Shown in pieces: positions 1 to 63,188 of a DNA stretch of 64,000 bases; position 1 is the stretch's first letter; each line of letters opens with the position of its first letter. The position numbers were made by a program, and so were the translations under genes. Source of the DNA: an uncultured bacterium (GTDB lineage Bacteria > RBG-13-61-14 > DATKZS01); the NCBI GenBank assembly GCA_964650485.1, contig CAZYTX010000015.1:6182-70181 (forward strand). The letters are read 5' to 3'. A model generated the notes under the pieces. That model saw only the letters and a program-made list of their open reading frames with translations. It had not been told where the DNA came from and did no database searches.

Positions 1-701
1 CCGACGGCTTGTCCGAGCCTTCCCGAAAGTCCCTTGAAGAGGAGCTTCTGGAGAAGAGAGGCGTGGTGTCCCTTGATTACGTGGACAAGGACCAGGCCAT
101 GCTCGATTTCCACGCCATGCTGGGAGAGCGGGCGGAGATACTGGACGGCATGGAGGAGAACCCGCTGCCTGCAAGCTTCGTGCTCTCCCTGGACCCGGGA
201 GCAAGGAGCATGCAGGAGGTGGAGAAGCTGGCCGGGTCCATTCAAGAGATGCAGGGCGTGGACGAGGTTGACTACGGTGCGCGCCTCCTTGAGAGCTTCT
301 TTGCCGCGGGGAGGATAGCCCGGGCCGCGGTGCTTTTCATAGGGGGGCTGGTGGCAATGGCCGCTGCATTCATAGTGTCCAACACCATCAGGCTGACCAT
401 GTACGCCCGGGCCGAGGAGATAGGGATCATGAAGCTGGTGGGCGCGGGCAAGGCCCTTGTGCGCCTGCCCTTTGTGATCGAGGGTGTGCTCCAGGTCGTT
501 GCAGCGTCCTGCACGGGTTGCGCGCTTTTGTGGCTGCTTTTCCGCATGGGTCTCCAGGGCGTGCATTTCCCTGGCCTGCTGGGCGGGTTCGAACCGGTGT
601 TCCTCTCCGCCCCCGCAGTGTGGGCCATTCTGGGAGCGGGAGCGCTCATGGGCGCGGCCGGGAGCATGAGCAGGGTAAGGGTGTTCCTCAAGATGCAATG
701 A
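1..701 (+). CDS. ftsX: Cell division ABC transporter permease FtsX, C-terminal part (5' end lies outside window)
   Basis: ORF 9..701 is open to the window edge. It has 4 TM segments typical of FtsX (AAVLFIGGLVAMAAAFIVSNTIRLTMYAR...GIMKLVGAG) and sits directly upstream of an EnvC-like M23 gene, the usual ftsEX-envC order. Confidence 0.75.
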   Translation, partial: DGLSEPSRKSLEEELLEKRGVVSLDYVDKDQAMLDFHAMLGERAEILDGMEENPLPASFVLSLDPGARSMQEVEKLAGSIQEMQGVDEVDYGARLLESFFAAGRIARAAVLFIGGLVAMAAAFIVSNTIRLTMYARAEEIGIMKLVGAGKALVRLPFVIEGVLQVVAASCTGCALLWLLFRMGLQGVHFPGLLGGFEPVFLSAPAVWAILGAGALMGAAGSMSRVRVFLKMQ

Positions 702-706
702 AACCC

Positions 707-802
707 GGTAACACATAGCTTTGCTATGTGTGCGACCGAAGGGAGCAGGTTGTGGAGGAAGGAGCAAGAAGACATTGGAAAAATTCTGGTGAAGTGCACA
801 TG
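707..802 (+). repeat. Conserved intergenic leader module, copy A: 9-bp-stem hairpin CACATAGC-TTT-GCTATGTG, then GACCGAAGGGAGCAGGTTG, then GTGCACATGA spanning the start codon
   Basis: A ~47-nt core GGTAACACATAGCTTTGCTATGTGTGCGACCGAAGGGAGCAGGTTG is near-identical to the reverse complement of 10587-10636. Both copies lie in the same orientation relative to transcription, 5-15 nt after an upstream stop codon, and end in GTGCACATGA containing the downstream ATG. Confidence 0.6.
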
Positions 803-2086
803 ACCTGCTCGCTCCGCTCGCCCACAAAGCAGAGCTTTGTGGGTTGCCTTTTGAAAGTGGAGCGGAAAACCATTAAAGCTCTGAAAGAGCGACGGTCTAT
901 AGCCCCGGGCACGCCCCGCCAGGGGCGCAGCCCTGGGAAAGCCCTTGCTGCCGCGGTGCTGTTTGCGGTCTCGGCCTGGGGTCTGGCGTATGGCTCCGAG
1001 GGCCTGGTGAAGCGGTCCGAGATAAGCCGGGAGCTCGATCGCACCAGGCAACAGATGGAACGGGAGAGACGCGCCCTGGATGAGCTCATGGGCAGGGAGG
1101 GGCGGCTGCTTGAGAAGCTCGCGGCCTTGAAGAGGCAGCTCGCCCGCTCGCGGTCCCGGCTCTCCGATCTGGCCGCAAAAAAGCGGAACCTCGAGGAGCA
1201 GGAGAGGGAGCTGGTGCAGAAGATCAGCGATCTTGAAGCGGAGCTCGCGGAGAAAAAGCGCAGCATGGGAGAGCGTCTTTCCGCCCGCTACCGCTTCGAG
1301 AGGCGCGGGTCGCTCTCTTTCTGGCTGGGCGCGGAGAGCATCTCCGCTCTGTCCAGGCGCGCCCGCTACCTGGAGGACCTTTTCCTGGCCGATAAGAAGA
1401 AGGTGGAGTCCTATAAGACGCTGCTGGCCGAGCTCTTTGAAACACAGGAGGAGCTCTCGGAGAAGCGGCGCGACCTCGATTCCCTGCACCGCGTCGAGCT
1501 CGAGCAGGAGAGGGCCCTTGCCAGGCAGAAGAGCTCGTATGAAGGCATGCTGCGCAAGGTGAACCTTGAGCGGGAGGCGCACGAGCAGCTCCTTGCCGAG
1601 CTTAAAAGGAGCGCGGAGCGTCTTGAGTCCCTTATCGAGGAGCTTGCAAAAGAGGGCTCCAGCGGTGGTGAGTTCGAGTCCAGGAAGGGCTCCCTGTGCT
1701 TTCCTGCCCCGGGCGAGGTGGTCTCCGAGTTCGGCAAGAAGGTGCACCCGCGCTTTTTAACCGTGACCATGCAGAAGGGCATAGAGATCGGCGCCGGAGG
1801 AGGGGCGCCGGTGAGGGCGGTGTCATCTGGCGTGGTCAGGTTCGCGGAGTGGTTCATGGGCTACGGCAACCTGGTGATCCTTGACCACGGCAACGGGTTC
1901 TACACCCTTTACGGGCACCTGGCGGAGTTCAGGTCCGGGGTAGGAGGTCGTGTCGAGCGGGGCGAGGTTATCGGGCTGGTGGGTGACACGGGCTCGCTTT
2001 CCGGGCCTTCGTTGTACTTCGAGATCAGGCGGCGGCTTACGCCCATGGACCCGGCTGAGTGGCTCGCGGACTGCGTGGAGGGATGA
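800..2086 (+). CDS. envC: Murein hydrolase activator EnvC-like protein (signal peptide, long coiled coil, C-terminal M23/LytM peptidase domain)
   Basis: Start ATG at 800 is set by the conserved leader GTGCACATGA; ORF track start 728 is probably too early. It has a hydrophobic N-terminus ALAAAVLFAVSAWGLAYG and a REL/KRQ coiled coil. The C-terminal GYGNLVILDHGNGFYTLYGHL...GDTGSLSGPSLYFEIR matches M23 peptidases. It follows ftsX. Confidence 0.7.
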   Translation: MTCSLRSPTKQSFVGCLLKVERKTIKALKERRSIAPGTPRQGRSPGKALAAAVLFAVSAWGLAYGSEGLVKRSEISRELDRTRQQMERERRALDELMGREGRLLEKLAALKRQLARSRSRLSDLAAKKRNLEEQERELVQKISDLEAELAEKKRSMGERLSARYRFERRGSLSFWLGAESISALSRRARYLEDLFLADKKKVESYKTLLAELFETQEELSEKRRDLDSLHRVELEQERALARQKSSYEGMLRKVNLEREAHEQLLAELKRSAERLESLIEELAKEGSSGGEFESRKGSLCFPAPGEVVSEFGKKVHPRFLTVTMQKGIEIGAGGGAPVRAVSSGVVRFAEWFMGYGNLVILDHGNGFYTLYGHLAEFRSGVGGRVERGEVIGLVGDTGSLSGPSLYFEIRRRLTPMDPAEWLADCVEG

Positions 2087-2225: not shown

Positions 2226-3239
2226 TCAGTTCCTGTTGCCTGTCTTTCTGGCGTTCATGGCCTGCTTGATCTCTTCCACCGTGGCGACCGAGGTCCCGAT
2301 CTTTCCGACCACTATCCCCGCGGCCAGGTTGGCCGCCTTTGTGGCATCGAGCATGTCCATGCCCGCGACCAGGGCCACTGCCATGGCGCCCACCACCGTG
2401 TCGCCGGCGCCGGTGACGTCGTAGACCTCTCTGGCACGGGCGGGTATGTGCGCTGGCTTCTTTGTGTTCCGGAAGAGGCTCATCCCCTTCTCGCCCCTGG
2501 TTATGAGCAGTGCCTTGCATTGCAGTCGCTTTAGAAGCATCTCTCCGGCCCTTTCCAGGTCCTCATCAGTCTCGATCCCGGTCCCGGTCATGACCGATGC
2601 CTCCTGGCTGTTGGGCGTTATCAGGTCCACGCCCCGGTACCAGTCGGCGTGTGCGGGCTTGGGGTCCACCACCAGGAGCTTGCCTTTTTCCCTGCACAGC
2701 CCTTTGAGCCTCTCCATCAGCTTCTCGCTCACCAGCCCCTTTTGGTAGTCGGACACCACCACCGCGTCCACCGAGCCTATGGAGTCTTTTATGGACCTCC
2801 ACAGCTTGTTGAAGGTGGAGGGCTTTAGCTGTCTCGGGTCCTCGCGGTCAAAGCGCACCACCTGCTGCTGGTGGGCGATGATCCTGGTTTTGACCGCGGT
2901 GGGCCTCCTTGTGCTCCTGTGCACGCAAGCGCCCCTGGCGCCGATGCGCTCGAGCTCGCGCAACACGGCCTCACCCGCGGGGTCCGTGCCCACCACCCCG
3001 GCGAGCACGGCTTTTGCCCCGAGCGCGCGCACGTTGCCCACCACGTTGGCCGCGCCGCCCAGCAGGGCCGTCTCCCTGTGCACCTCGACCACGGGCACTG
3101 GGGCCTCGGGGGATATCCTCTTTACACGTCCCCATATGAAGATGTCGTGCATGATGTCGCCCACCACCATGACCCTGGCCTTTTTGAATCGGCCCAGTGA
3201 GTCCAGGAGGCCGGCTTTGGGTTTGGGGGTTCTTTTCAT
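2226..3239 (-). CDS. hldA: D-glycero-beta-D-manno-heptose-7-phosphate kinase (RfaE domain I / HldA type, pfkB carbohydrate kinase); no adenylyltransferase domain
   Basis: VMVVGDIMHDIFIWG at the N-terminus and DVTGAGDTVVGAMAVAL near the C-terminus are pfkB/RfaE-I hallmarks. Start chosen at MKRTPKPKAG (codon 60 of ORF 2226..3416) so it does not overlap the next gene; length ~337 aa. Confidence 0.65.
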   Translation of the reverse strand: MKRTPKPKAGLLDSLGRFKKARVMVVGDIMHDIFIWGRVKRISPEAPVPVVEVHRETALLGGAANVVGNVRALGAKAVLAGVVGTDPAGEAVLRELERIGARGACVHRSTRRPTAVKTRIIAHQQQVVRFDREDPRQLKPSTFNKLWRSIKDSIGSVDAVVVSDYQKGLVSEKLMERLKGLCREKGKLLVVDPKPAHADWYRGVDLITPNSQEASVMTGTGIETDEDLERAGEMLLKRLQCKALLITRGEKGMSLFRNTKKPAHIPARAREVYDVTGAGDTVVGAMAVALVAGMDMLDATKAANLAAGIVVGKIGTSVATVEEIKQAMNARKTGNRN

Positions 3240-3523: not shown

Positions 3524-6158
3524 TGTTTTCCACGAAGAGCTGGAACCTTTTCACCTCGGCGTGGAGCGTCTCGCCTTCCCTTGTCAGGGCCTCGACCACC
3601 TCGGAGAGCTTCTTTGAACTTTCCGCGCTCTGCTGGCTGACCACGTTAATCCTGTCCATGAGCTTGAGCACCTGCGAGCTTCCCTGCTTCTGGTCCTGCT
3701 GGGCCTGGTTGATGCTGTATAGCATGTCGGTGATGTTCTCGATTGACTTGGTGATGAGCCTGGATCCCTGGAGCTGCTCCTCGGCGTTCCGTTTCACCTG
3801 CAGGGAGGCGCTCTTCATCTCCTCGGTGGACCTGTAAATCTGTGCCCCCCCCTTGGACTGCTGCTGGGTGGCCACGGATATCTGGTTTATCATCTCCGCC
3901 ATCTTCTCCATGGCCTGGCTCACCTGCCTGCTGGAGTCGGTCTGCTCCCTGGTGGTCCTGGCTATTCCCTGCACCCTCTCCATGGCCAGCTTGGTGCTCT
4001 CCATGATCTTTGCAAGCGACCCGCTGGCCTGCTCGGCCAGGTTGACCCCCTTCTCCACCGCCCTGGTGCCTTCCTCGATGGCGCCCACAGCCTGCTGCGA
4101 CTCCTCCTGCACGCCCTTTATGAGACCGTGTATCTCCCGGGTGCTTCCCGAGGTCCTCTCGGCAAGCTGCTTAATCTCGTCCGCGACCACGGCGAAGCCG
4201 CGGCCGTGCTCGCCCGCCTGGGCCGCGATGATGGCGGCGTTAAGAGCAAGCAGGTTGGTCTGGTTGGCCACGTCGTCTATCACCTGCACGATCTTGCCTA
4301 TCTCGTCCGCCCTTGATCCCAGCCTCTCGATCACGTCCTGGGCCGAGTGAACCACCTCGGATATCTCGTGCATCTCCTGCCTCACCTGGGAGACGTTGTC
4401 CACGCCGCTCTCCGCGTCCTTTATCACCGACTCGCTCCACTCCGCGGTGTCCTTGGTGTTCTTCTCCACCTGCCTTATGGCCGCGTCCATCTGGGCCATG
4501 CTGGAGGCCGTGTCCTCGGATACGCTGGAGAGCGCGCTCACGTTCTCCGCCACCTGGTCAAGGGCAGCGGTCATCTCGTTTATGGAGCTGGAGACCTCGT
4601 TTATGGACTGGTTCAGGATGTCCACGCTCTCGTTTATCTTCTTGACCGCGGCGCTCATCTCGAACACGGACGAGGAGCTCTCCTCGGCCGAGGACGAGAG
4701 CACCTCCACGTTGTCCGCGATCCCCTGGATGTTGGCGTCCATCTGGTTTATGGCCGTGGCCACGTCCTCCAGGGCCTGCACCTGCTGCTTGGCCCCGTCC
4801 CTCACCGACTCCGAGGCCTGCTGTATGGACCCGGTGGCCTGGTCAAGGCTTTTTGCCGCCTCCCTTATCCTTCGGATGACCCCGCCCAGCCGGCCGCTCA
4901 TGTCGCGGAGGCTGAGGGCAAGGTCGCCCACCTCGTCGTTGGCGTGGAAGAACACGTCCATGTGTATCTGGCCCTCGCCCACCTCCTTGGTGAACTCGAC
5001 CAGGCGGGAGATGGGGGAGGAGATGTCCGAGGCTATGGCCGCGCCCACCCCTATGCTGATAAGTGTTATCACCCCCATGAGCCCTATTGATATCCACTTG
5101 AAAGTGGAGAGCTGGCCCTTGTAGTTGCTCCAGGGGTAGCCGTACATGAGGAAGTACTCCCTGGCATGCTCGCCCTCGCCTGTCACCACACGCTTGAACA
5201 CCGAGACCTCGGCCCCGAAGGGGTTGAACTCCAGGGAGACGCCGTCAGTCGAGTCCTTGGCCTTGTCCCTGCTCACGTCTATCATCACCTCGGGATAAAT
5301 GTCCAGGAAGGACTGTCGCCGCAGATGCTCCTTGTATCCCTCACCGGTGTCCTCCACCAGGTAAATGTTTCGAGTGTCATCCTGCATGGCCGCAAGCTCG
5401 CTCGTGACCTCCTGCATATAGCCCGGGTCACGGTGCAGCCTGTCCCAGTCTATGCTCTCCGCCCGCTCCCTGACCTCGGAGAGGTGCTGCTTCCCTATCC
5501 ACCTTTGCAGCGCGGCCGCGGCCTGCCTGTATCCGGCCAGCTCGGCGATGAACAGGCTCAGCACCACCAGGGGTATGAGGGTGATCAAGAGGAATGACCT
5601 CAAAGGCACCCGCATGACCGAGAGCTCCTGGTCGAGCACCTCGGGGCTCCTGTGTATGATAAGCCCCACCACCGGGTCAACGATGGAGCGCCACCTGTAG
5701 AACTGGAAGATGGTTATTATGAGGGCCGCGGCCACCACTCCGACCCAGATGGTGCCTCCATCTATGAAGCGCAGCTTGCCGTCGGTGGCCACCAGGGCGC
5801 CCAGCACCGCGCCCAGGCCACCTGCCGCCCACGCGGCCAGCCCGAAAAGCGGCATCTTCACCGGGAAGTCCATCACCGCCTTGAGGGCCTGCTGGGCCGA
5901 GACCTCGCCCTGGGGCCCGGGCTCATGGTCGAGGAAGGCCTGCGCCACCCTCCAGCGCCTGTTCATGAGCATCACGTGGATGGCTATCATGCTGGCCGTG
6001 GGCACAAAGGCCCCGGCCAGCGCGTACCCTATGATGCCCAGTGTCACCGTGGGTATGAGTATGAGTATGTAGAGAATGAGCAGGATGATGCCCATGGTGG
6101 TGAGTATGGCAATCCAGCGGTCTATCTGCTTCTTGGCATTATCAACTACGTCGGCCAT
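3501..6158 (-). CDS. Methyl-accepting chemotaxis protein (multi-TM N-terminal sensor region, HAMP, MCP signalling domain)
   Basis: 885 aa. N-terminal hydrophobic helices, then a long heptad-rich region with the MCP signature ...[35 protein letters not shown]... Confidence 0.85.
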
Positions 6159-6633: not shown

Positions 6634-7566
6634 ATGCATCCGGTAATCGAGATCATAGATATAGTCTCGCCTGTTTTCCTGCTTATCGGGGTGGGCTACG
6701 CCCTTGGCTCCAGGGGGTTTATGGGGCCGGAGGCGGTCTCGGTTCTTTCCAGGCTGGTGTTTTACGTTGCCGCGCCCCCGCTGCTTTTCAGGAGCGCGGC
6801 AGGGGCGGACCTGTCCCGGGCACTTGACATGGGCTCCATCGCCTGGATAGCGCTGGTGACCGTGCTCACAGCCTCCGCCACATACGCGCTCGCGGCATGG
6901 ACCAGGCCCGAGCGCCGGGGTGTGATCGCCCAGGGTGTCTTCCGCACCAACATGGTGTTCGTGGGGCTTCCGGTGATCATGAACGCCTTTGGCGAGGAGG
7001 TTCTGGGCCCGGCCGCGGTGCTCATAGGCTTCATGGTGCCGGTGTACAACCTCCTTGCCGTGCTGGTGCTCTCCCTGCCGCATAAGAGCGCGCAAGGCCC
7101 CGGGTCCCTGCTTTGGAAGACTGCGCGCGAGGTGGTGTTGAACCCTCTCATCCTGGGCAGCGCCGGGGGCATGGTCTTCTCCGCGCTGGGCCTTGCCCTG
7201 CCCGTGTTCGCGGACCGCACCTTCGATCTCTTGGGAAGGATAGCCATGCCGCTCGCGCTCCTGGTGGTGGGCGCCGGGCTTGACGTTCAGAGGCTGCGCA
7301 CCGAGCTGAGAGCGGCCTCCCTCATCTCTTTTATCAAGCTGATAATATACCCCGCGCTTATCTATGCGGGGCTCAGGATGGCCGGGGTCTCCGGGGTGTC
7401 GCTGCAGTTCCCGGTGCTGCTCATGGCCGCGCCCACCGCGGTGGCCAGCCACATCATGGCCCGGGAGATGGGAGGCGATTCTCAGCTTTCCTCCGCGGTC
7501 GTTATCGGCGCCACCCTGAGTTCACTTTTCACCATTACCCTGTGGCTGGTGTTCTTCAGGCTCTGA
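6634..7566 (+). CDS. AEC (auxin efflux carrier / malate permease) family transporter
   Basis: 310 aa, ~10 TM helices in a 5+5 arrangement separated by a hydrophilic loop. Composition is typical of the PF03547 membrane transport family. Confidence 0.65.
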   Translation: MHPVIEIIDIVSPVFLLIGVGYALGSRGFMGPEAVSVLSRLVFYVAAPPLLFRSAAGADLSRALDMGSIAWIALVTVLTASATYALAAWTRPERRGVIAQGVFRTNMVFVGLPVIMNAFGEEVLGPAAVLIGFMVPVYNLLAVLVLSLPHKSAQGPGSLLWKTAREVVLNPLILGSAGGMVFSALGLALPVFADRTFDLLGRIAMPLALLVVGAGLDVQRLRTELRAASLISFIKLIIYPALIYAGLRMAGVSGVSLQFPVLLMAAPTAVASHIMAREMGGDSQLSSAVVIGATLSSLFTITLWLVFFRL

Positions 7567-7613
7567 CCGCGAAAAGTTTTGCAGGCCGCCCGGGGTCTGC
7601 TAATCTAGAATGC

Positions 7614-8822
7614 ATGAAGCCTTTCCAGGTGCTGGTAAAGCCCGCAGCGGGCGATTGCAACCTTGCATGCGAGTACTGCTTTTACCGGAGCACCACGCCC
7701 GAGCTCTACCCCGATCAGAAAAAACACCGCATGAGCCGCGAGGTCATGGAACTGCTGGTGAAAGACCTCCTCTCCTACCGCTTTGCCGAGACCATCTTTT
7801 CATGGCAGGGAGGCGAGCCCACCCTCATGGGACTCGATTTTTTCGAGGACGTGATCCGCGCGCAGATGGACAATGGAAAGGGCGGCCAGGTGGTGGGCAA
7901 CGCGCTCCAGACCAACGGCATCCTCATAAACGACGACTGGGCCAGGTTCCTTTCCCGCTACAAGGTGGTGGTGGGACTTTCCCTGGACGGACCACGGGAT
8001 GTTCACGACCGCTTTCGGAAGAGCGCGGGAGGAGGGCCTACCTTTGACCGGGTGATGGAGGCCGCGGAGGTGATGAAAAGGCGGGGCGTGGCCTTTAATA
8101 TCCTCTGCGTGGTGAACCGGTATAACCAGGACCTGGGCCGCGAGGTTTTCCGGTTTTTCAAGGCCCAGGGTTTCGATTACATCCAGTTCATACCCTGCCT
8201 GGAGACGCACCCCGAGAGCTGCGAGGTCATGCCCTTCTCGGCCACGCCCGACGGGCTGGCCCGCTTCTTTTGCCGGGTGTTCGAGGAGTACGCCGCGGAG
8301 GGTTTCCCCCGGGTGTCGGAGCGCAACTTCGACGCGCTCCTCAGCATGCACGTTACAGGCAGCCCGGGTCTTTGCACCTTCGAGGACAAGTGCGGCTCCT
8401 ACCTGGTGGTCGAGTACAACGGGGACATATACCCTTGCGACTTCTTCGTGGAGGAGAAGTGGCGGCTGGGGAACCTGGGCGACAAGCGGCTGGGCGAGTT
8501 CTTCGAGCACCCCCTGATGCACAAGTTCGCCGCGGCCAAGCAGAAGGTCCCGGCCGAGTGCAGGCGGTGCAGGTGGTACGCCTGGTGCTTCGGCGGTTGT
8601 CTCAAGGACAGGCTCCCGCACCGGGCGGATGGCCCGGGCAAGAGCCGGTTCTGCGAGTCCTACCTTGCCATGTTCGAATGCTCGCAAGAGAAGATGGAGA
8701 AGTGGGCGGAGATGGTGAGGCAAAGGGACGGTCAGGCGGAGCAGGAGGGGAAAAGGCCCGGCAGGAACGCCCCCTGCCCCTGCGGCTCCGGGAAGAAGTA
8801 CAAGAAGTGCTGCGGCGCGTGA
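7614..8822 (+). CDS. Radical SAM / SPASM-domain maturase of the anaerobic sulfatase-maturating enzyme (anSME) type with a C-terminal SecA-like SEC-C zinc-binding tail
   Basis: N-terminal VLVKPAAGDCNLACEYCFY (Cx3Cx2C). C-terminal Cys clusters CTFEDKCG...YPCDFF...CRRCRWYAWCFGGC fit SPASM. The last 20 aa, [20 protein letters not shown], form a SEC-C motif. Start is at MKPFQ (ATG 7614). Confidence 0.7.
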   Translation: MKPFQVLVKPAAGDCNLACEYCFYRSTTPELYPDQKKHRMSREVMELLVKDLLSYRFAETIFSWQGGEPTLMGLDFFEDVIRAQMDNGKGGQVVGNALQTNGILINDDWARFLSRYKVVVGLSLDGPRDVHDRFRKSAGGGPTFDRVMEAAEVMKRRGVAFNILCVVNRYNQDLGREVFRFFKAQGFDYIQFIPCLETHPESCEVMPFSATPDGLARFFCRVFEEYAAEGFPRVSERNFDALLSMHVTGSPGLCTFEDKCGSYLVVEYNGDIYPCDFFVEEKWRLGNLGDKRLGEFFEHPLMHKFAAAKQKVPAECRRCRWYAWCFGGCLKDRLPHRADGPGKSRFCESYLAMFECSQEKMEKWAEMVRQRDGQAEQEGKRPGRNAPCPCGSGKKYKKCCGA

Positions 8823-8831
8823 GCTTCCACA

Positions 8832-9842
8832 CTATGGTTCTACGTATACCCGCTGGCGCCTGGACGGAGGGCTCTGGTTGGGCGCCGCCGCGTTGTCCAC
8901 CGCGGTGATCGCGTACTCGTACTCCGCGCCGGCCCTGGCGGTCCGGTCGAGGTAACCGGTCTCTTTCAGGGGGTCGAGGAATAGCTGCTTGAAGTCGGTC
9001 TTTCCCGGCCTCCTCCTCCATACCAGGTACCCGTCGAGGTCCGGCTCCTGGTTCATAAGCCAGGAAAGCTGAACACCCTCGCCGGTCCAGGCGGCGCTCA
9101 CCCCCTTGGGCGCCGCGGGCGGGACCTTGTCCACCGGGACCACGCTGACCCGGGCCGGCGGCCCCTCCACACTCGGGTACCCGGGCGGCTGGATCATTGC
9201 CCTTATCTCGTAGAAGTATTGGGCCCCGTTCTCGACGGGGCCGTCGGAGAAGCGGGTCGCGGCGATGGGCTCCGGGTTCACTGGATGGAAGGACTCGAGT
9301 GCCGGGCTCCCGGTCCGGTACAGGTTATATAAGAGGCCGGGTGGTGCGCCTTCCGGGGGCCGCCATGTTACGTCCGCGTGACCGTCGCCCGGCTCGGCCG
9401 CGGGGTTCTTTGGCGCACCCGGCGGCTGCGGGTTCATGGCCTTCACCGGCCCCGCGGCCTCGCCGCTCTCCTGCTCCGCTGATACGCCCCGGACCTTGTA
9501 AAGAGCGGCCCGGCCGTGCTCCAGGGAGCAGTCGGAAAAGCGGGTCTTGTCCGTGCTTTCAATGACCATATACGAAGGCGATCCCCTGTGGCCGGGCTCC
9601 TCGGCGCGCAGCACCTGGTAGCTTGTCGCGGCCACCTTTTGCGGGGGCTTTTCCTCCGGCGCTGTCCAGGACAGCTCTACGCAACCCTCGCGCACCAGCG
9701 CGGCAAGGTCCCCGGGCCTGGCCGGCGCCGGGACCAGCGGCGGCTCCGGCAAGGCCTTCACCCCGCAGTAGCAGAGCAGGAGACCGGCCGCGCACAAAGG
9801 CGTGTATATTATAGGGTATTGGAGGCGCTTGCCTGAGATCAT
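8832..9842 (-). CDS. Secreted protein with three fibronectin type III-like repeats
   Basis: N-terminal hydrophobic segment with LLLCYCG. Three ~90-aa repeats, each starting with a P-rich linker then a Y/W-rich beta motif (LSWTAPE..., VTWRPPE..., LSWLMNQ...). Start ATGA overlaps the hisA stop. Confidence 0.5.
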   Translation of the reverse strand: MISGKRLQYPIIYTPLCAAGLLLCYCGVKALPEPPLVPAPARPGDLAALVREGCVELSWTAPEEKPPQKVAATSYQVLRAEEPGHRGSPSYMVIESTDKTRFSDCSLEHGRAALYKVRGVSAEQESGEAAGPVKAMNPQPPGAPKNPAAEPGDGHADVTWRPPEGAPPGLLYNLYRTGSPALESFHPVNPEPIAATRFSDGPVENGAQYFYEIRAMIQPPGYPSVEGPPARVSVVPVDKVPPAAPKGVSAAWTGEGVQLSWLMNQEPDLDGYLVWRRRPGKTDFKQLFLDPLKETGYLDRTARAGAEYEYAITAVDNAAAPNQSPPSRRQRVYVEP

Positions 9843-10573
9843 TCCCCCGCGTCCTTTGCAATCTTTATGGCCCGGGCCAGGTCCAGGGTCCCCTCGTAAA
9901 TGGCCCTGCCGGTGATCACCCCTATGACCCCGTCCTCCTCGTGCTTTTTAATCTGCATAATATGCTCGATAGTCTTGACGCCCCCGGAGGCTATGACCGG
10001 GAGGCTTATTTTCCGTGCCAGGTCCGCGGTGCTCTCCACCGACGGCCCGGTCATCATGCCGTCCCTTTTTATGTCCGTGTATATGATGGCGGCCACCTCC
10101 ATTCCCTGGTAGGGCGCGGCCAGCTCGGCCGCGGGGACGTCGGTGAGCTCGGCCCACCCCTTGACCGAGACCTTCCCCTCCCTGGCGTCCACGCCCACCG
10201 CTATCCTTTTCGGGTAAGCTTCACTCGCCCTTTCCACCAGTTGGGGGTCCTTGTGCGCCGCGGTGCCCAGCACCACCCGGTGCACGCCCTCCTGCAGGTA
10301 TGACTTTATCGTATGCATGCGTCGCAGGCCGCCGCCCAGCTCCACGGGGACATCCACGGCCTTTACAACATCGAGCACCGCCTCCCTGTTCACGGGCCCT
10401 CCGGCGAACGCCCCCTCCAGGTCCACCACGTGTATGAGCTCCGCGCCCATGGACGCCCACTTGCGGGCCACGGCAGCAGGGTCGTCCGAGTAGGCCTTGT
10501 CCCTGTCCATCATGCCCTGCTCGAGCCTGACCACCCTGCCCCCTTTCAGGTCTATGGCGGGAATGACAATCAT
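9839..10573 (-). CDS. hisA: HisA-like (beta/alpha)8 isomerase: 1-(5-phosphoribosyl)-5-[(5-phosphoribosylamino)methylideneamino]imidazole-4-carboxamide isomerase
   Basis: MIVIPAIDLKGGRVVRL...GGGLRR...VVLGTAA...ASGGVKTIEHI are HisA/HisF family signatures. The start ATG at 10573 lies in the conserved leader module. No other his genes are nearby. Confidence 0.65.
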   Translation of the reverse strand: MIVIPAIDLKGGRVVRLEQGMMDRDKAYSDDPAAVARKWASMGAELIHVVDLEGAFAGGPVNREAVLDVVKAVDVPVELGGGLRRMHTIKSYLQEGVHRVVLGTAAHKDPQLVERASEAYPKRIAVGVDAREGKVSVKGWAELTDVPAAELAAPYQGMEVAAIIYTDIKRDGMMTGPSVESTADLARKISLPVIASGGVKTIEHIMQIKKHEEDGVIGVITGRAIYEGTLDLARAIKIAKDAGE

Positions 10574-10640
10574 GTGCACCTTTCCATCCAACCTGCTCCC
10601 TTCGGTCGCACACATAGCAAGCTATGCGTGTTACCGCCAC
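10574..10640 (-). repeat. Conserved intergenic leader module, copy B (10-bp-stem hairpin with one compensatory G-U, GGGAGCAGG, GTGCACATGA at the hisA start)
   Basis: Reverse complement of 10587-10636 matches 709-756 at about 45 of 48 nt. It lies between the mutase stop (10653) and the hisA start (10573). Confidence 0.6.
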
Positions 10641-10652
10641 GGCCGCCCGTCC

Positions 10653-12323
10653 TCAGAAGAGCACCGGGGGCCTGTACTCGCCGAAGGCCGCCCTCCAAAC
10701 GTCGCATATCTCTCCCACCGATGCGTATGCCTTTACCGCCTCCAGCACGCAGGGCATGAGGTTGTCGCCGCCGCGGGAGGCGTTCTCCAGCCGCTGCATG
10801 CTTTGCTTGTATTTTTCCGGGTCCCTGTTTGCGCGCACCTTCCTCAGCGCCTCGACCTGCTCCTGTTCGACCTCCTCCCCGATCTTGAGGGTCGGCACCG
10901 GCGGGTAGTCCTCGGTTGCGTACTTGTTCACGCCCACGATCACCTGGTCGCCCTCTTCCACCGCGAGCTGGTAGCGGTATGAGGCGTCGGCTATCTCCCG
11001 CTGCGGGAACCCCTTCTCGATGGCCGCGACCATTCCTCCCATCTCCTCGATCCTGTGGATGTAGTCCCATGCCTCGTCCTCCATGCGGTCGGTGAGCTGC
11101 TCCAGGTAGTACGAGCCGGCCAGCGGGTCTATGGAGTGGGCCGCCCCCGACTCCTCGGCGATGACCTGCTGGGTGCGCAGGGCCACGGTCACGGCCTCCT
11201 CCGTGGGCAGGGACAGGGTCTCGTCCATGGAGTTGGTGTGCAGGCTCTGGGTGCCGCCCATGACCGCGGCCAGTGCCTGTATAGTTGTGCGTATGACGTT
11301 GTTGTGCGGCTGCTGTGCGGTGAGCGAGCACCCCGCGGTCTGTGTGTGGAAGCGCATGATCCTGCTCTTTTGCTCTTTGGCGTTGAAGCGGTCCTTCATG
11401 ATCTTCGCCCACATCCTGCGGGCGGCCCTGAACTTCGCCACCTCCTCGAAGAAGTCGTTGTGGGAGTTGAAGAAGAAGGACAGCCGGGGGGCGAAGGCGT
11501 CCACCGGAAGCCCGGCGTCAATGCCGGCCTGCACGTAGCACATGCCGTCGGCTATGGTGAATGCCAGCTCCTGGGCCGCGGTGCTCCCCGCCTCCCTGAT
11601 GTGGTAGCCGGATATGGATATGGTGTTCCACCTGGGCACGCGCTCGGCGCAGAATCCCATGATGTCGGTGATGATGCGCAGCGATGGCCGGGGCGGGAAT
11701 ATCCACGACTTCTGGGCGATGTACTCCTTCAGTATGTCGTTCTGTATGGTGCCGCCGATCTCCGCTGCCGGGGCCCCCTGCTTCTCGGCCACTGCCATGT
11801 ACATGGAAAGCAGTATGGACGCGGGCGCGTTTATGGTCATGGAGGTGGTGACCTTGTCGAGAGGGATGCCCTGGAACAGTGTCTCCATGTCTGCAAGGGT
11901 GTCCACGGCCACGCCCACCTTCCCCACCTCGCCCAGGGAGCGGGGATGGTCCGAGTCGCGCCCCATGATGGTGGGCAGGTGGAAGGCCACGGACAGGCCG
12001 GTGACCCCCTGCTGCATGAGGTAGTGGAAGCGCTGGTTGCTCTCCCTGGCGGTGCCGAACCCGGCGAACTGTCTCATGGTCCAGAGCCTTCCCCTGTACA
12101 TGGTCGGGTATACTCCTCGTGTATAGGGGTGCCGGCCCGGGAAGCCGAGCTTTTGCTCGTAGTCGAAACCGGGCAGGTCGTGGGGGGTGACCAGCCTTGG
12201 TATCTCCCGCATGGACACGGTCTTGAAGCGCTCTTTCCTCTCGGGTGACTTCGCAAGGTGCGGCTCCAGCGCCTCCTTTTCCCACTGGACCTTTGAGTGG
12301 GTGGAAGATTTCTTGTCCGCCAT
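10653..12323 (-). CDS. Coenzyme B12-dependent acyl-CoA mutase large (substrate-binding TIM-barrel) subunit: methylmalonyl-CoA / isobutyryl-CoA mutase family, no fused B12-binding domain
   Basis: 556 aa. [39 protein letters not shown]..., ...[14 protein letters not shown]... and the overall length match MCM/IcmA catalytic subunits. No cobalamin-binding small subunit or MeaB is adjacent. Confidence 0.8.
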
Positions 12324-25740: not shown

Positions 25741-25917
25741 GGCTAGCCTTTCCATTCCTTAACTTACTAAGTTAGATAATCACGGTGTGCGATAAGTCAA
25801 GGAGGGGAGTGAGCGGGGTCAGCCCACATAGCTGTTTGCGCTATGTTTTGTGTGAAGTTAAGGAGGAAAGGAGGCATGCAGATGGATGTGAAAGCTCATG
25901 AGCCGGCTATGAATTCC

Positions 25918-31024: not shown

Positions 31025-31057
31025 CATCTGCAATACTCCGCAATAAGATGTTTATTT

Positions 31058-31160
31058 CGCACAGAGACACAGAGATGCAGAGATTCGGAATTTTTATTGC
31101 GAGAAAAAATCTCTGAGATTTATTTCTCTTCTTCTGTGTCCTCTGTGCCTCTGTGCGAGA
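31058..31160. repeat. Inverted arrays of 8-bp direct repeats (CACAGAGA x3 ... ~55-bp AT-rich spacer ... TCTGTGYC x3 ending CTCTGTGCCTCTGTGCGA), copy 1
   Basis: Left arm CGCACAGAGACACAGAGATGCAGAGAT, right arm TCTGTGTCCTCTGTGCCTCTGTGCGAGA. It is flanked by T-rich runs and sits ~40 bp upstream of the ABC ATPase start. The 18-nt CTCTGTGCCTCTGTGCGA recurs identically at 58460-58477. Confidence 0.6.
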
Positions 31161-31203
31161 CAATTTTTTATGCCACCTATTTCGGGAGCGCGCCGGAAGA
31201 ATT

Positions 31204-38957: not shown

Positions 38958-39385
38958 GGCGGGCTCCTTTCTGCCGATGCTTTTTTGTCTATCGGGCAGC
39001 TCACAAAAGCTATGTGGGCCACCCTCAACCCATACACCATGTCATAAAAATAGCTGATCAGAGGCGCCAATACAAGAAGAGCAAAGATATATGGCATCAC
39101 TCTTGTCCAAAACAGGATCAGGAAAATTTACCACAAAGTCGCAAAGGCACGAAGAATTAAAAGGATCAGGAGGATTGATTCAAGGCCTTGGCAAAGTCAA
39201 CCTGGATTTGGACATGGCAAAAAAAGAGGGGGCTTGCTCGCTTTTGACCCTCGCTTTGCCTTTTCTTCCTTGGCGTCTTTTCTGGTGCCTTGGCGTTTTG
39301 CTTTCGCTTCTGCCCTCGTTTATAATCCTTTTACTGTCCGGGTCTGCGTCAGGGAAGTGTTTTAGTAACGAGGAGGTTTAAGCCA

Positions 39386-55609: not shown

Positions 55610-56605
55610 ATGAAGACAAAGGTTTTCGCTTTGTCGGTCGCGGCGCTTTTTTTAGTCGGGACCTACGCCTGTTCGCTGAAGGAAGTGGATAAAGCGGTGG
55701 ACACCGCGGATAAGGCGGCGGGCCTGGCTGAAAAGTTCGAGGACAAGGCCGAGGAAAAGAAGGGGTCCTCCGAAGGGGGAGAGACCGCCCAGGCTGCCGG
55801 AGGGGTTAGGCAACAAAGCGGTGTAAGGATTGACAAGTACGAGCCCAACGAGGACCTGCTGAGCCCCACCCAGGTCGAGTTGCCAGCCACCATAAAAGCC
55901 ACAATCGAGCCCGCAGGAGATATTGATTTTTACAAGTTCCACGTTGCCTCGAACAAAAGGGAATTGGTGAATGTCACCTTGCTTAACCCCACCACCAACC
56001 TTCGTCCTTGTTTGCATTTTTACAACCAGAACAGGGAACGCTTTGGGGGAACTGGTAGAGTACAACCCGGAACTGCAAAGGTCGGTGGAGAAATTATCGC
56101 CCTGCCAAATCAGGATTACTATGTAGCAGCATGTACTTCTTCATCAGGCAATTGCGCATGCAGAGAATCAGGAGGAAATTCCAGCAAGTATTACACCCTG
56201 AAGATAGAGCTTGCCGGAGTGGGTGATAAATATGAGCCCAATGAATCACTTACTGAGGCCACCACAGTCTCCCCCGGGAAAATAAAAGGCACCATCAACC
56301 CGAAAAACGACAAGGATGTTTACAAGGTCCGGTTCAGCAGGTCCGGCACAGTAAAGGTCACATTCCATAACCCCACGCTTAACCTTCAACCTTGTCTGCA
56401 TTTTTACGACCAGAACCGGCAACAATTTGGTCAAACGAGTAGGGTTCAAGCCGGCGCAGCCAAGACCGGAGGCAAATTCAATGTACAGCCCAATCAGGAT
56501 TATTATGTAAAAGTATGTACCTCTTCATCAGGTAATTGCGCATGCAGAGGATCGGGAGGAAATTCAGAAAAACCTTACACCCTTGAGATCAGGATGGTAG
56601 AGTAA
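55610..56605 (+). CDS. Lipoprotein/secreted protein with two tandem pre-peptidase C-terminal (PPC)-like domains
   Basis: Signal peptide MKTKVFALSVAALFLVGTYAC. Two ~125-aa repeats, each DKYEPNE...IEP.GD.DFYKF/VYKV...L.N.PCLHFY.QNR..FG...YYV..CTSSSGNCACR..GGNS.K.YTL, matching the DxYEPND...D.DwY.F...YYi.V pattern of PPC domains. Lower GC than neighbours. Confidence 0.5.
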   Translation: MKTKVFALSVAALFLVGTYACSLKEVDKAVDTADKAAGLAEKFEDKAEEKKGSSEGGETAQAAGGVRQQSGVRIDKYEPNEDLLSPTQVELPATIKATIEPAGDIDFYKFHVASNKRELVNVTLLNPTTNLRPCLHFYNQNRERFGGTGRVQPGTAKVGGEIIALPNQDYYVAACTSSSGNCACRESGGNSSKYYTLKIELAGVGDKYEPNESLTEATTVSPGKIKGTINPKNDKDVYKVRFSRSGTVKVTFHNPTLNLQPCLHFYDQNRQQFGQTSRVQAGAAKTGGKFNVQPNQDYYVKVCTSSSGNCACRGSGGNSEKPYTLEIRMVE

Positions 56606-58378: not shown

Positions 58379-58477
58379 CACACAGAGGCACGGAGAGCAC
58401 AGAGGAAAGAAAAATAACATAGCGTATGTTCCCGTTTATTGTTCATCCAGCTCTGTATTCTCTGTGCCTCTGTGCGA
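58379..58477. repeat. Inverted arrays of 8-bp direct repeats, copy 2 (CACAGAGG CACGGAGAG CACAGAGG ... spacer ... CTCTGTAT TCTCTGTGC CTCTGTGCGA)
   Basis: Same arm sequences as 31058-31160 (18-nt identity CTCTGTGCCTCTGTGCGA). On the minus strand the proximal arm lies ~40 bp upstream of the rSAM paralog-3 start codon. Sits between secA and that gene. Confidence 0.6.
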
Positions 58478-58553
58478 AAAAACCTTGCTCATACCTATCT
58501 TGGACAGCAATGAAAAGTAGTACAAACCCCGGGGACACTCATCAGTATGGCGC

Positions 58554-61500
58554 TTACACCCCGCAGCACTTCTTGTACTTCTTTCCCGAGCCGCAGGGAC
58601 AGGGGTCGTTCCTTCCCACCTTGGGGACCTCGTGCCTGAAGGTCACGGGCTTCTCGTCTTCCGCTGGACTGATGGGCTCGCGGCCCCCGTCGGGCGCTGA
58701 CTCCGCTGCCTGGGCCGCGGGCATGGCCGGCCTTCCGCCCCTTCCGGCCCTCATGCCTCGTATTGCCCTGCGCCTCCTCTCCATCCTCTCCTGCTCCGGG
58801 TCAACGGGCTGGATGCGGGAGATCCTCTGCACGGCCTCGGAGTGCACGTTGAACACGAAGTCCTGGAACAGGTTTATGGACTCGCGCTTGTACTCGACCA
58901 GGGGGTCCTTCTGCCCGTATCCCGCCAGTCCGATGCCCTCTTTGAGGTGGTCCATGTCCAGGAGGTGGTCCTGCCACAAAGAGTCAATGGTGAAAAGGTA
59001 TATGTCCTTCTCCACCTGGTCCATGGTCTCGGTTCCGATGGCTTCGCGCTTTTGCTGGTACGACTTTATTGCCTGCTCTGCTATCATGCTTGCGAGGTCG
59101 TCCGGGTGGGTGGAGTCCAGCTTCTCCGGGTCCAGGATCACGGCCACCCCGAGCTGCTGCGCCGCCTTGAGGGTCATCTGTTTCCAGTCCCACTCCTCCT
59201 CGGGTGTCTTCTCGTCGCCGAAGGAGTAGACGATGTCCTCGGCCACCCGGGTGACGGCGTCCTCCACCCGGGCCTGGATGCCCTCCTCCCTCATGATGTC
59301 GCGCCGGAGCCCGTAGACTATCTCCCGCTGCTGGTTCATCACGTCGTCGTAGTCCAGCAGCCGCTTCCTGATCTCGAAGTTGTGTTGCTCGACCTTTGCC
59401 TGTGCGCGCTGTATGGCCCTGGACACCATCTTGTGCTCGATGGGCTCGTTGTCCTCGATCCCGATCCTGTCCATTATCTTTGCCAGCGAGTCGGAGCCGA
59501 AGATGCGCATGAGGTCGTCCTCGAGTGAGAGGTAGAAGCGAGAGCTTCCCGGGTCCCCCTGCCTGCCGGATCGTCCCCGGAGCTGGTTGTCAATGCGCCG
59601 GGACTCGTGCCTCTCGGTGCCGATGATGTGCAGCCCCCCCTGGTCCACCACCTTGTTGTGCTCGTCCTCCCACGCGGCGCGGAACCTGGCCATGAGCTCC
59701 TTGAACCTCTCCTCGTCCCCCTTGGCCGCGGTCTTGGCCATCATCTCCGGGTTGCCGCCCAGTATGATGTCTGTGCCGCGTCCGGCCATGTTGGTGGATA
59801 TGGTGACCGCTCCCAGCCGGCCGGCCTGTGCCACTATCTCTGCCTCCCTCTCGTGGTGCTTGGCGTTCAGGATATTATGGCGTATGCCGCGGTTCTTTAG
59901 CATGCGGTGCAGCCGCTCGGACTTCTCCACCGAGGTGGTGCCCACCAGTATGGGCTGGCCGGTCTCGTTGACTTGTTCGATCTCTTCCACCACCGCGGCG
60001 AACTTCTGCTTCTCGGTCTTGTAAATAACATCCGAATGGTCCTCCCTCACCATGGGCATGTGGGTGGGGATGACCCTCACGTCCATCTTGTAGGTGTTGT
60101 GGAACTCCTCCTCCTCGGTCTCCGCGGTGCCGGTCATTCCGGCAAGCTTCTTGTACATGCGGAAGTAGTTCTGCAGGGTGATGGTGGCGATGGTTTGTGT
60201 GGCCTTTGCGATTGAGAGGTTCTCCTTGGCCTCGATGGCCTGGTGGAGCCCGTCCGAGTACCTTCTCCCTTCCATCTTCCTGCCGGTGAACTCGTCCACT
60301 ATCACCACCCGTCCGTTCTCGACCATGTACTCGTCGTCCAGCTCGAACATGTTGTAGGCTTTGAGGAGCTGGCTTACCACGTGCAGCTTCTCGCTCTTGT
60401 CCTGGTAGTCACGGGTGAGCTCGTCCAGCCTGGCGGCCTTGTCCTCCGCGGACAGGCTCTCGTCACGGTTGATCTCGTCCTCCGCTGTGGAGAGCTCGGG
60501 CAGCACGAACACGTCTCCGATGATGCCCACGAGCTCCTCCTGTCCCTCCTCGGTCAGCTCGATTGAGTTGTCCTGCTCGTTGTGCGCGTAGAGCAGCCCC
60601 TTTTTCAGCTCGTACAGGGTCTTGTTCATGCGGAGCTGGTTCTGCACCCGCTCCATCTCCTTTTTTGTCTCCTTGTTGGAGGCGATGAGGTTGAACAGCT
60701 CCTTGTTCTTGGGGTCTCCGGCCTGCACCTGGCAGAGCTTGAAGTAGTACTCCTCGCTGGCGCCGTTGTCCTTCTGCAGGCGGCGGGCCTCGGAGAAAAT
60801 CTTCCTCACTATCTGCTTCTGCCTTTTCACCAGCCGCTCCACCGGCTGCCTGAGCTCGGCATAGGCCCTGGTGTCGTCCCGGTCAACCTCCCCGGATATG
60901 ATGAGCGGGGTGCGGGCCTCGTCTATGAGTATCGAGTCAACCTCGTCAACTATGGCGTAGTAGAGGGGATCGGGCTGCACCATCTCTTCCGCCCGGTGCT
61001 TCAAGTTGTCGCGCAGGTAGTCGAACCCGAACTCGGAGTTGGTCCCGTATGTCACGTCGCAGGAGTAGGCCTGCTTCCTCTCCTCGTCGGGCATGTCGTG
61101 CTGCAGGGAGGAGGCGGAGAGCCCCAGCAGGTTGTACACCGGTCCCATCCACTCGGCGTCGCGCCGCGCCAGGTAGTCGTTCACCGTGATGACGTGCACC
61201 CCCTGTCCCAGCAGGGCGTTCAGGGCCACAGGGCAGGTGGCGGCCAGGGTCTTTCCCTCGCCGGTCTTCATCTCCGCTATCTTGCCCTGGTGCAGGGCGA
61301 TGGCGCCCAGCATCTGCACGTCGTAATGGCGCTGTCCCAGGGTGCGCCTGGCAGCCTCCCTGGTGGCGGCGAACACCTCGGGTAACAGCCCGTCGAGCTT
61401 TTTCATGTAGCGGTCCCAGTCATCGTCGGTGAAGTTCCTGCGCTCCTCCTGGACAGCATCCCAGTCTTTATCAAAGATGCGCTTCCGCCACTTCCCGGCC

Positions 61501-61652
61501 AGGCCGCTCATCTGCTCGTCGGTCATGGACTCGAACTCGGGCTCGAGCGCGTTGATCTCGTGGACTATGGGCCATATCTCTTTTAGCACGCGCTCGTTCT
61601 TGGACCCGAAGATCCTGACCGCGATCGAGCTTAGGCTGGACATTACTGACAT
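58554..61652 (-). CDS. secA: Preprotein translocase ATPase SecA (with C-terminal SEC-C zinc-binding motif)
   Basis: 1032 aa. N-terminal [17 protein letters not shown]-like motor motifs, C-terminal [20 protein letters not shown]. Confidence 0.95.
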
Positions 61653-62810: not shown

Positions 62811-63188
62811 ATGTTACGCGTATCCAGTCTCTTCAGTCAACTGCTCCACCACTTCCCCCGGTCCGAGTTCGCATCCCTGGTCAAAAAGCACAACGCCGAG
62901 TACAAGGCAAAAGGCTTCACCTGCTGGAGCCAGTTCGTGTCCATGATCTTCTGCCACCTGGCGGGCGCCGGCTCACTCCGGGACATCCGCAACGGGCTCA
63001 AGTGCTGCCTGGGAAAGGTGCGGCACCTCGACCGAAGGCTGCCGCCTCCGGCGGGCATGCTCCTTGACAAAAGAGCGGATTCCGCTAATCACGTCCCTGA
63101 CACACAAATAGTTGCATCACCTGTGCGCTTTAATTTTGCTTGCATCGCGTTTGATAATGTGGTAAATTATATTGACTTTAATGAATGA
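62811..63188 (+). mobile_element. Remnant of an IS4-family transposase gene (N-terminal DUF4372 domain only; truncated after ~85 aa)
   Basis: MLRVSSLFSQLLHHFPRSEFASLVKKHNAEYKAKGFTCWSQFVSMIFCHLAGAGSLRDIRNGLKCCLGKVRHL matches the conserved N-terminus of DUF4372-containing IS4-family transposases (..FSQL...P..EF...V.....RY.K.F.CW.QF..M.F.QL....SLRDI...L.....K.YHLG). Sequence then diverges and stops. It retains AAGGAGG RBS and CATAAT -10, in an AT-rich patch. Confidence 0.55.

Follow-up and report, generated by a model that had tools for sequence, protein, structure and literature searches.

Introduction

REP elements consist of a hairpin and a terminal tag, and they form dimers, frequently heterodimers, in which the tags are outermost and the two units are separated by 20-100-bp spacers (PMC3733652). 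The published tag variants of the GTAG superfamily are GYAG, GYRG, GTRG and GTMG (PMC3733652). REP singletons are remnants of dimers, REPs are located between co-oriented as well as convergent ORFs, and G.T pairs occur in them; it was also shown that REPs are swallowed by over-long ORF calls and that some families have "double palindromic" arms (PMC3733652). RAYT tyrosine transposases are the presumed mobilising enzymes of the REP/REPIN elements (PMC3116915; PMC3733652). IS110-family elements, e.g., ISPpu9, are known to target REPs, and co-transcribed REPs can stabilise the upstream mRNA or lower the translation of the upstream gene (PMC8450116).

Here we describe a repeat found between a methylmalonyl-CoA-mutase-family gene and hisA in a 64-kb stretch of bacterial DNA (the whole of this stretch is referred to as the window). 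The first-pass annotation had seen in this junction the second copy of a "leader module". The copy is real and the genes that flank the junction are co-oriented, but the term "leader", in the sense of a cis-regulatory 5' leader, turned out to be unsupported. We consider that the sequence at 10590-10635 (- strand) is most probably a lone arm, one half of a dispersed palindromic repeat of REP/REPIN-like type that has decayed, and not a gene-specific leader.

Three Repeat Arms at Two Loci of the Window

When positions 10560-10665 were compared with the window by blastn, 10589-10620 was found to match 752-721 exactly over 32 nt (E = 3.5e-13), and a gapped match of 63 nt with 85.7% identity was found between 10575-10636 (-) and 706-766 (+) (E = 1.8e-12). 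A third, weaker arm is present on the opposite strand at 803-848 (78%, E = 3.7e-5). Repeat finding recovered the same pair (46 nt, 87%). The features of the two loci, with the evidence for each in brackets, are:

10653..12323, - strand: methylmalonyl-CoA-mutase-family gene (Pfam MM_CoA_mutase, E = 8.7e-228)
10653..10655, - strand: TGA stop codon of this gene (ORF list, sequence)
10630..10635, - strand: unpaired 5' tag GGTAAC in the position of the REP GTAG tag, degenerate here (sequence, arm alignment)
10610..10629, - strand: hairpin H1, ACGCATAGC-TT-GCTATGTGT, with a 9-bp stem that includes one G.T pair (fold and covariation)
10595..10609, - strand: mini-hairpin H2, GCGACCGAAGGGAGC, read as GC / tandem G.A-A.G / CC-GAA-GG / GC (covariation)
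10590..10594, - strand: tail AGGTT, the inner end of the arm, with AGG nearly invariant in all arms (arm alignment)
10574..10589, - strand: spacer remnant GGATGGAAAGGTGCAC with the Shine-Dalgarno-like GGAAAGG at 10579-10585 (aligns to 752-768, GTGGAGGAAGGAGCA)
10571..10573, - strand: ATG start codon of hisA (N-terminus MIVIPAIDLKGG)
9839..10573, - strand: hisA gene (Pfam His_biosynth, E = 6.6e-76)
707..751, + strand: left arm of the full element, with GGTA, H1 at 711-731, H2 at 732-746 and AGGTT (blastn, covariance model)
752..801, + strand: spacer of the full element, ~50 nt, which contains GGAGGAAGGAG and ends in GTGCACATG (sequence)
802..848, - strand: right arm of the full element, with GGCAAC, H1 CCACAAAGC-TCT-GCTTTGTGG, H2 GCGAGCGGAGCGAGC and AGGTC (blastn, covariance model)

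A covariance model run over the whole window with filters off scored the three arms at 63.1, 60.5 (707..751) and 59.3 bits (802..848), values that are high by construction since all three arms sat in the training set of the model. The informative outcome is that neither nhmmer nor the unfiltered covariance model found a fourth arm in the 64 kb, the best match of the model beyond the three arms scoring 13.5 bits. The total for the 64-kb window is three arms at two intergenic loci. A 1.3-kb Logan contig of the same organism ends exactly within H1, which fits multi-copy repeats, where assemblies break. Weak model matches at 25826-25846 and 38988-39023 were rejected as copies for being too poor. 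The stretch 25824-25847 reads CCCACATAGC-TGTTTGC-GCTATGT, which resembles H1, and is followed by GTTAAGGAGGAAAGGAGG; it has no H2, scores ~6 bits and is either a decayed relic or a product of chance.

The intergenic spacer between the mutase TGA and the hisA ATG occupies positions 10574-10652 and reads, on the - strand, GGACGGGCGGCCGTGGC-GGTAAC-ACGCATAGC-TT-GCTATGTGT-GCGACCGAAGGGAGC-AGGTT-GGATGGAAAGGTGCAC-ATG. It was proposed in the first-pass annotation that the copy fills this 79-nt spacer entirely. The length is correct and the module, which takes up ~62-67 of the 79 bases, comes close to filling it, but the 17 nt that separate the mutase stop from the tag are not common to the other copy. 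At the opposite end, 5 nt separate GGAAAGG from the hisA ATG. A scan of 10300-10900 (both strands in the case of terminators) predicted neither a promoter nor a terminator at the junction, which makes co-transcription of the two genes plausible, and we consider a mutase-hisA co-transcript probable. The hairpins are followed by AGGTTGGATGG, which is not T-rich and does not correspond to the G+C-rich hairpin with a U-run of an intrinsic terminator. The nearest available relative of hisA is 68% identical and keeps the hisA/fn3-like gene pair, with a methyltransferase gene upstream of hisA instead and with no module in the hisA upstream region; the arrangement at the mutase-hisA junction is therefore lineage-specific.

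Architecture and Covariation of the Arms

The full element at 707-848 is a 142-nt inverted pair located between ftsX (9..701) and an M23 peptidase gene. It has the two inverted units and the short spacer of a REPIN, or "HH dimer", and so do its relatives. In general, the complete elements are ~140-190 nt long and are built of two inverted arms with the tags outermost and a spacer of 50-100 nt, while the mutase-hisA copy is a singleton made of a lone arm and a shortened spacer. After AGGTTG this copy reads GATGGAAAGGTGCA, which is aligned to the beginning of the spacer of the full element, TGGAGGAAGGAGCA. In the window, the 10-mer GTGCACATGA occurs in exact form only at 794-803 (+) and 10570-10579 (-); in the full element it immediately precedes the right arm, and at both loci it ends at an ATG. 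The predicted fold of single-stranded 700-849 is a long imperfect hairpin (-66.2 kcal/mol, z = -5.5), and each arm is also able to fold alone, the values for the 51-nt module being -18.6 kcal/mol as RNA and -9.4 kcal/mol as DNA.

H2 is 15 nt long and directly follows H1. Its pairs are G-C, C-G, G.A, A.G, N-N' and C-G around a GNA triloop, or GC-GA-NC-GNA-GN'-GA-GC in consensus notation. The mutase-hisA copy has the left-arm form of H2 (GCGACCGAAGGGAGC), the same as in 707-751. The right arm at 802-848 differs from the left one in a compensatory manner: the fifth pair of H2 is changed from C-G to G-C, and a T-A pair of H1 is changed to A-T.

The proposed structure was tested on 21 distinct arms (alignment A3), the test covering H1 and the four Watson-Crick pairs of H2. 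The fraction of paired cells is 93.2%, compared to 79.1% in column shuffles, none of which (0 of 500) reached the observed value, and the covariation score is 0.366 versus 0.145. Six pairs are changed on both sides across the 21 arms, and in a control where the partners were slid by 1-3 columns the pairing falls to 16-51%. For H1, five of the nine stem pairs are changed on both sides and 95.6% of the cells are paired, as is expected of a REP, an imperfect palindrome of 20-40 nt with complementary changes in the stem. The fifth pair of H2 is C-G in four arms, G-C in eight and A-T in three, and the loops are GAA, GGA and GCA. H2 is not favoured by nearest-neighbour energies, and it is covariation that supports this mini-hairpin. 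Triloops of the C(GNA)G type, in which a G.A pair is sheared, give DNA mini-hairpins of unusual stability, and the proposed H2 would fit this description.

Copies in Other Genomes and Metagenomes

The pattern used to scan genome contigs was loose (17 specified bases), and most of the listed matches are due to chance and fall in coding DNA; the informative ones are L073 and a few other repeat families. Among the matches listed, L073, a MAG, carries at ~400-585 the same inverted pair with the same difference between the left and the right H2, in A+T-rich flanks. The metagenome scan matched L124, L139 and six contigs of the metagenome Ga0209777. In the latter, at least six distinct loci have the complete design in elements of 135-150 nt, which read GGATAGC-GCACATAGC-TT-GCTATGTGC-GCGAACGNAGTGAGC-AGGTT, then a spacer, then the reverse complement of an arm with GCGGC-GNCA-GCCGC. 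Inverted pairs are present at L127, L128, L131, L137, L138 and L140, in addition to 707-848 of the window and L073. The surroundings of the copies vary: one is downstream of the ispD stop (L128), another downstream of the yajC stop (L137), a third beside a periplasmic binding protein gene (L131), and a fourth between a beta-barrel OMP gene and a gene convergent to it (L138), a position that excludes the role of a 5' leader there. Runs of GGGGTTT/GGGTTTA heptamers flank the L131 copy on both sides (~410-600).

In L124, a copy close to the L073 element is interrupted by an IS110-family element of ~1.6 kb (DEDD_Tnp_IS110 and Transposase_20, transposase at 525-1610 on the - strand), which splits the 5' arm of H1 into ...CGGGTAACCCAT at 119-131 and ACACATAGC... 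from 1713 (1713-1757). The junctions of this insertion read ACCCAT and ACACAT.

The matches listed also include an inverted pair from Hymenobacter, GTAG-CGCGAAGT-TTCC-ACTTCGTGC-GCGAGCGCAGCGAGC-AGG followed by its reverse complement, which combines the canonical tag with another H1 and the same H2; the search pattern accounts for part of the identity of H2 here, but for neither the tag nor the adjacent hairpin nor the inverted pairing. In Hymenobacter, the left and right arms occupy opposite strands and both have their G.T pairs in the sense of the arm, so that folding of each DNA strand fits better than folding of one transcript. The Hymenobacter repeat is multi-copy (GTAGCGCGAAGT-TTCC-ACTTCGTGC-GCGAGCGCAGCGAGC-AGG; L033 7127-7235 and L083 5233-5345, and also L023, L029, L030, L071 and L080), and its H1 has compensatory variants between the copies.

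Units similar to H2 were observed in further repeats. In a Solirubrobacterales MAG, L074 (596-676, 716-790 and ~1530-1620; also L130), TTGTGAGCGA(C/G)CGAAGGGAGC(A/G)GGTT is situated in the loops of long hairpins with stems of 28-30 bp that differ between the copies and stay complementary; this family is distinct from the one in the window but makes use of H2 as well. The H2-like unit TGAGCGAGCGNAGCGAGCAGG also opens two further intergenic repeats, which then continue each with a conserved sequence of its own: one in a Chloroflexaceae MAG (L015, ~3040-3110 and 3600-3800), the other in a metagenome (L120, 2725-2790 and 4530-4600).

The conserved unpaired tag is in the position of the REP tag throughout. 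It reads GTAAC/GCAAC in the window and in L073, ATAGC/CTAGC in Ga0209777 and GTAG in Hymenobacter, and the GTAA/GCAA of the window is absent from the published GTAG variants. Scans of viral contigs gave one chance match inside a phage gene and otherwise none, an all-against-all ORF comparison of the repeat-bearing loci revealed no recurrent protein or transposase beside the copies, and a full-text literature search for the core sequences returned no relevant paper.

Could the Element Be a MITE?

The terminal inverted repeats of ~45 nt, the short non-coding core, the length of 140-190 nt and the dispersed intergenic occurrence would also suit a strict MITE, i.e., a deletion derivative of a DDE-type IS that is moved by cut-and-paste by a full-length IS with the same ends, and the window does contain a truncated fragment of an IS4-like transposase (DUF4372, 62811-63188). 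We nevertheless regard this origin as quite unlikely. A MITE is recognised by terminal inverted repeats, a target-site duplication and an IS of full length with the same ends; here the inverted repeats exist, but inspection of the complete copies by eye showed no consistent duplication at their ends, no IS bounded by the arms was encountered, and the DUF4372 fragment has no arms nearby. Moreover, the sole intact transposase found beside a copy, that of the IS110 element in L124, interrupts the element and is not flanked by arms, and each arm is built like a REP, as a covarying hairpin whose tag is unpaired. The fragment itself is a 125-aa ORF on the + strand that matches DUF4372 with E = 1.7e-24, is cut off after ~80 residues and then continues into A+T-rich sequence. 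DUF4372 forms the N-terminal part of IS4-type transposases, and the truncated ORF has the appearance of a transposase relic.

Start Codons and the Leader Hypothesis

The repeat touches several gene calls. Two public calls of hisA begin inside it, one of 246 aa at GTG 10579 and one of 258 aa at ATG 10615, within the stem of H1. The N-terminus of a HisA homologue is MLIIPAIDLKGG, and the hisA product of the window begins, directly after the repeat remnant, with MIVIPAIDLKGG; the homologue N-termini suggest that the true start is ATG 10573. The public call of the M23 peptidase (444 aa) starts at GTG 752, immediately behind the left arm. The alignment to homologues of 365-410 aa begins at about residue 30-50 of the ORF opened by ATG 800, and the true start is probably TTG 851 or GTG 857 and not ATG 800. 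With a start at ~851-857, the whole 707-848 element is intergenic. Recognition of the repeat would therefore correct three public gene starts, two of hisA and one of the M23 gene.

These assignments bear on the original leader reading, according to which the module is a dedicated cis-regulatory RNA that controls the translation or stability of the downstream message, with hisA and the M23 gene being co-regulated. It is true that both copies in the window lie in sense orientation to co-oriented genes, that purine runs resembling a Shine-Dalgarno sequence come after both, that GTGCACATGA ends in ATG at both loci and that the hairpins are structurally conserved. However, since ATG 800 need not be a start codon and the homologue N-termini put the M23 start beyond the right arm, the idea of a portable "leader plus start codon" loses its main support. 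The arms come as inverted pairs, and half of them must therefore be antisense to any transcript; in other genomes the element is found behind the 3' ends of genes and where two genes converge; the genes beside the two window copies, among them hisA and the M23 peptidase gene, are functionally unrelated; and the closest relative of hisA has no module. There is also no match to Rfam 15, either in the window at gathering thresholds or at the two loci in a permissive search, which returned only miRNA and lncRNA matches at chance level. A leader is thus very unlikely, and the "leader module" of the first-pass annotation has to be replaced by the arm of an inverted-pair repeat.

It is hardly credible that the module is protein-coding, as an N-terminal extension of HisA (MCATEGSRLDGKVH-, the 258-aa ORF from ATG 10615) or as small 54-aa ORFs: ATG 10615 is in frame with hisA and is used in one public gene call, and four of the six Ga0209777 copies keep an open frame of 54 codons, but HisA homologues begin with MI/LxIPAIDL, ATG 10615 falls within the H1 stem, the loop lengths differ so that the frame is lost between copies, a profile of the 54-aa peptides had no match among 5.8 billion proteins, and the conservation of ~95% in the arms and ~60% in the spacers is the opposite of a coding pattern.

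Origin, Local Effect and Significance of the Half Element

Returning to the REP/REPIN-like repeat, the mutase-hisA half element may have originated from a full element that lost its right arm and part of its spacer. The loss would be achieved most simply by slippage or deletion between short direct repeats (GAAGG.GCA, ATGA), and ATGA does flank the right arm in the full copy. The occurrence of GTGCACATGA ending at an ATG at both loci counts against a pure "random remnant" model, which explains this shared end only through the proposed microhomology deletion. By analogy with REPINs, the family may have spread as single-stranded DNA hairpins copied by a trans-acting HUH tyrosine transposase (RAYT/TIRYT). 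No RAYT or Y1 (HUH) transposase was found among the subset of the window ORFs that was scanned against Pfam.

If the mutase and hisA are co-transcribed, the arm, being on the sense strand, would fold into a stable stem-loop at a distance of 17-23 nt from the mutase stop, and such an intercistronic structure could protect the part of the message upstream of it against 3' exonucleases. The spacer remnant, for its part, would supply the Shine-Dalgarno sequence of hisA, GGAAAGG being left largely unpaired in the predicted fold of a 73-nt RNA; the ribosome-binding region of hisA would then be built from repeat-derived sequence. By analogy with co-transcribed REPs, a side effect on the expression of the mutase relative to hisA is possible, and unequal levels of the two products, if any, would be a by-product of the insertion and not the work of a dedicated control circuit.

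The cross-genome conservation of H2 is the only feature of the family that goes beyond the ordinary. As a tentative and rather doubtful idea, several different repeat families in distant bacteria may share one recognition module, H2 together with the sequence around it (TGTG-N-GCGA-NC-GNA-GN'-GAGC-AGGT), the carriers being the lineage of the window, L073, Ga0209777, the GTAG-tagged Hymenobacter repeat, Solirubrobacterales, L015 and L120. If so, the module would point to one widespread clade of enzymes, RAYT/TIRYT or perhaps recombinases of the IS110 type, that recognises a DNA mini-hairpin with tandem G.A pairs and a GNA triloop, and to a horizontal spread of this type of REP that would be unusual for REPINs. 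Should H2 be a recognition site of an enzyme, it would provide a handle for the mobilising enzyme.

Other Repeats in the Window

Several other repeats were observed in the window. A 65-nt inverted repeat with 88% identity (8760-8824 and 58552-58616) joins the 3' ends of two genes, a radical-SAM/SPASM gene (7542..8822) that ends in a SEC-C motif and a gene for a 1032-aa protein (58554..61652, - strand) that is secA-like by the look of its translation; the two share a C-terminal zinc-binding tail that is near-identical at the DNA level. The second small intergenic repeat, TCTCTGTGCCTCTGTGCGA(A/G)A, is present three times (31052-31075, 31133-31163 and 58452-58482), with two inverted copies upstream of the gene at 31153 and one copy downstream of the stop of 58554..61652. 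A 239-nt direct repeat with 75% identity (55967-56205 and 56351-56589) lies inside the ORF 55610..56605, which has a weak match to the PPC domain; the G+C content of the region is lower, and the repeat looks like a domain duplicated within the ORF.

Comparison with Known Systems

The Correia elements of Neisseria and the enterobacterial ERIC sequences are imperfect palindromes of 100-200 nt that are intergenic or intercistronic, are co-transcribed and can alter the stability or processing of mRNA, and in this they are similar to the element described here. The Correia elements, however, duplicate a TA target, and their IS-like inverted repeats lack the internal design of hairpin plus tag. Integron attC sites and CRISPR repeats were set aside in view of the absence of an array, an integrase or matching core sites.

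A likeness also exists to the "double palindromic" TIR repeats of TIRYT genes (PMC3733652), in which a degenerate GTAG unit is accompanied by a second stem-loop and which form moderately abundant dimers and clusters. Those repeats, however, are defined by their TIRYT gene, and none was found here; this comparison is one of descriptions and not of sequences.

There are also differences from the typical REP/REPIN elements. The tag is GTAA/GCAA here and ATAG/CTAG in the metagenome copies instead of GTAG. Each arm contains a second conserved mini-hairpin, H2, with its tandem G.A pairs and GNA triloop. Finally, ~20-25 nt of the arm sequence are near-identical across contigs that differ widely in G+C content and context, while REPs are usually lineage-specific. 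Features that the two have in common are an unpaired terminal tag on a hairpin, inverted arms with the tags outermost, left and right arms that differ from each other ("heterodimers"), singletons, the intergenic site, G.T pairs, targeting by IS110-family elements and overlap with mis-called N-termini of ORFs. The family is thus best filed as an uncatalogued REP/REPIN-like member of a kind that is already known, which comes from an uncultured lineage without close relatives, as the 68% identity of the best hisA homologue illustrates.
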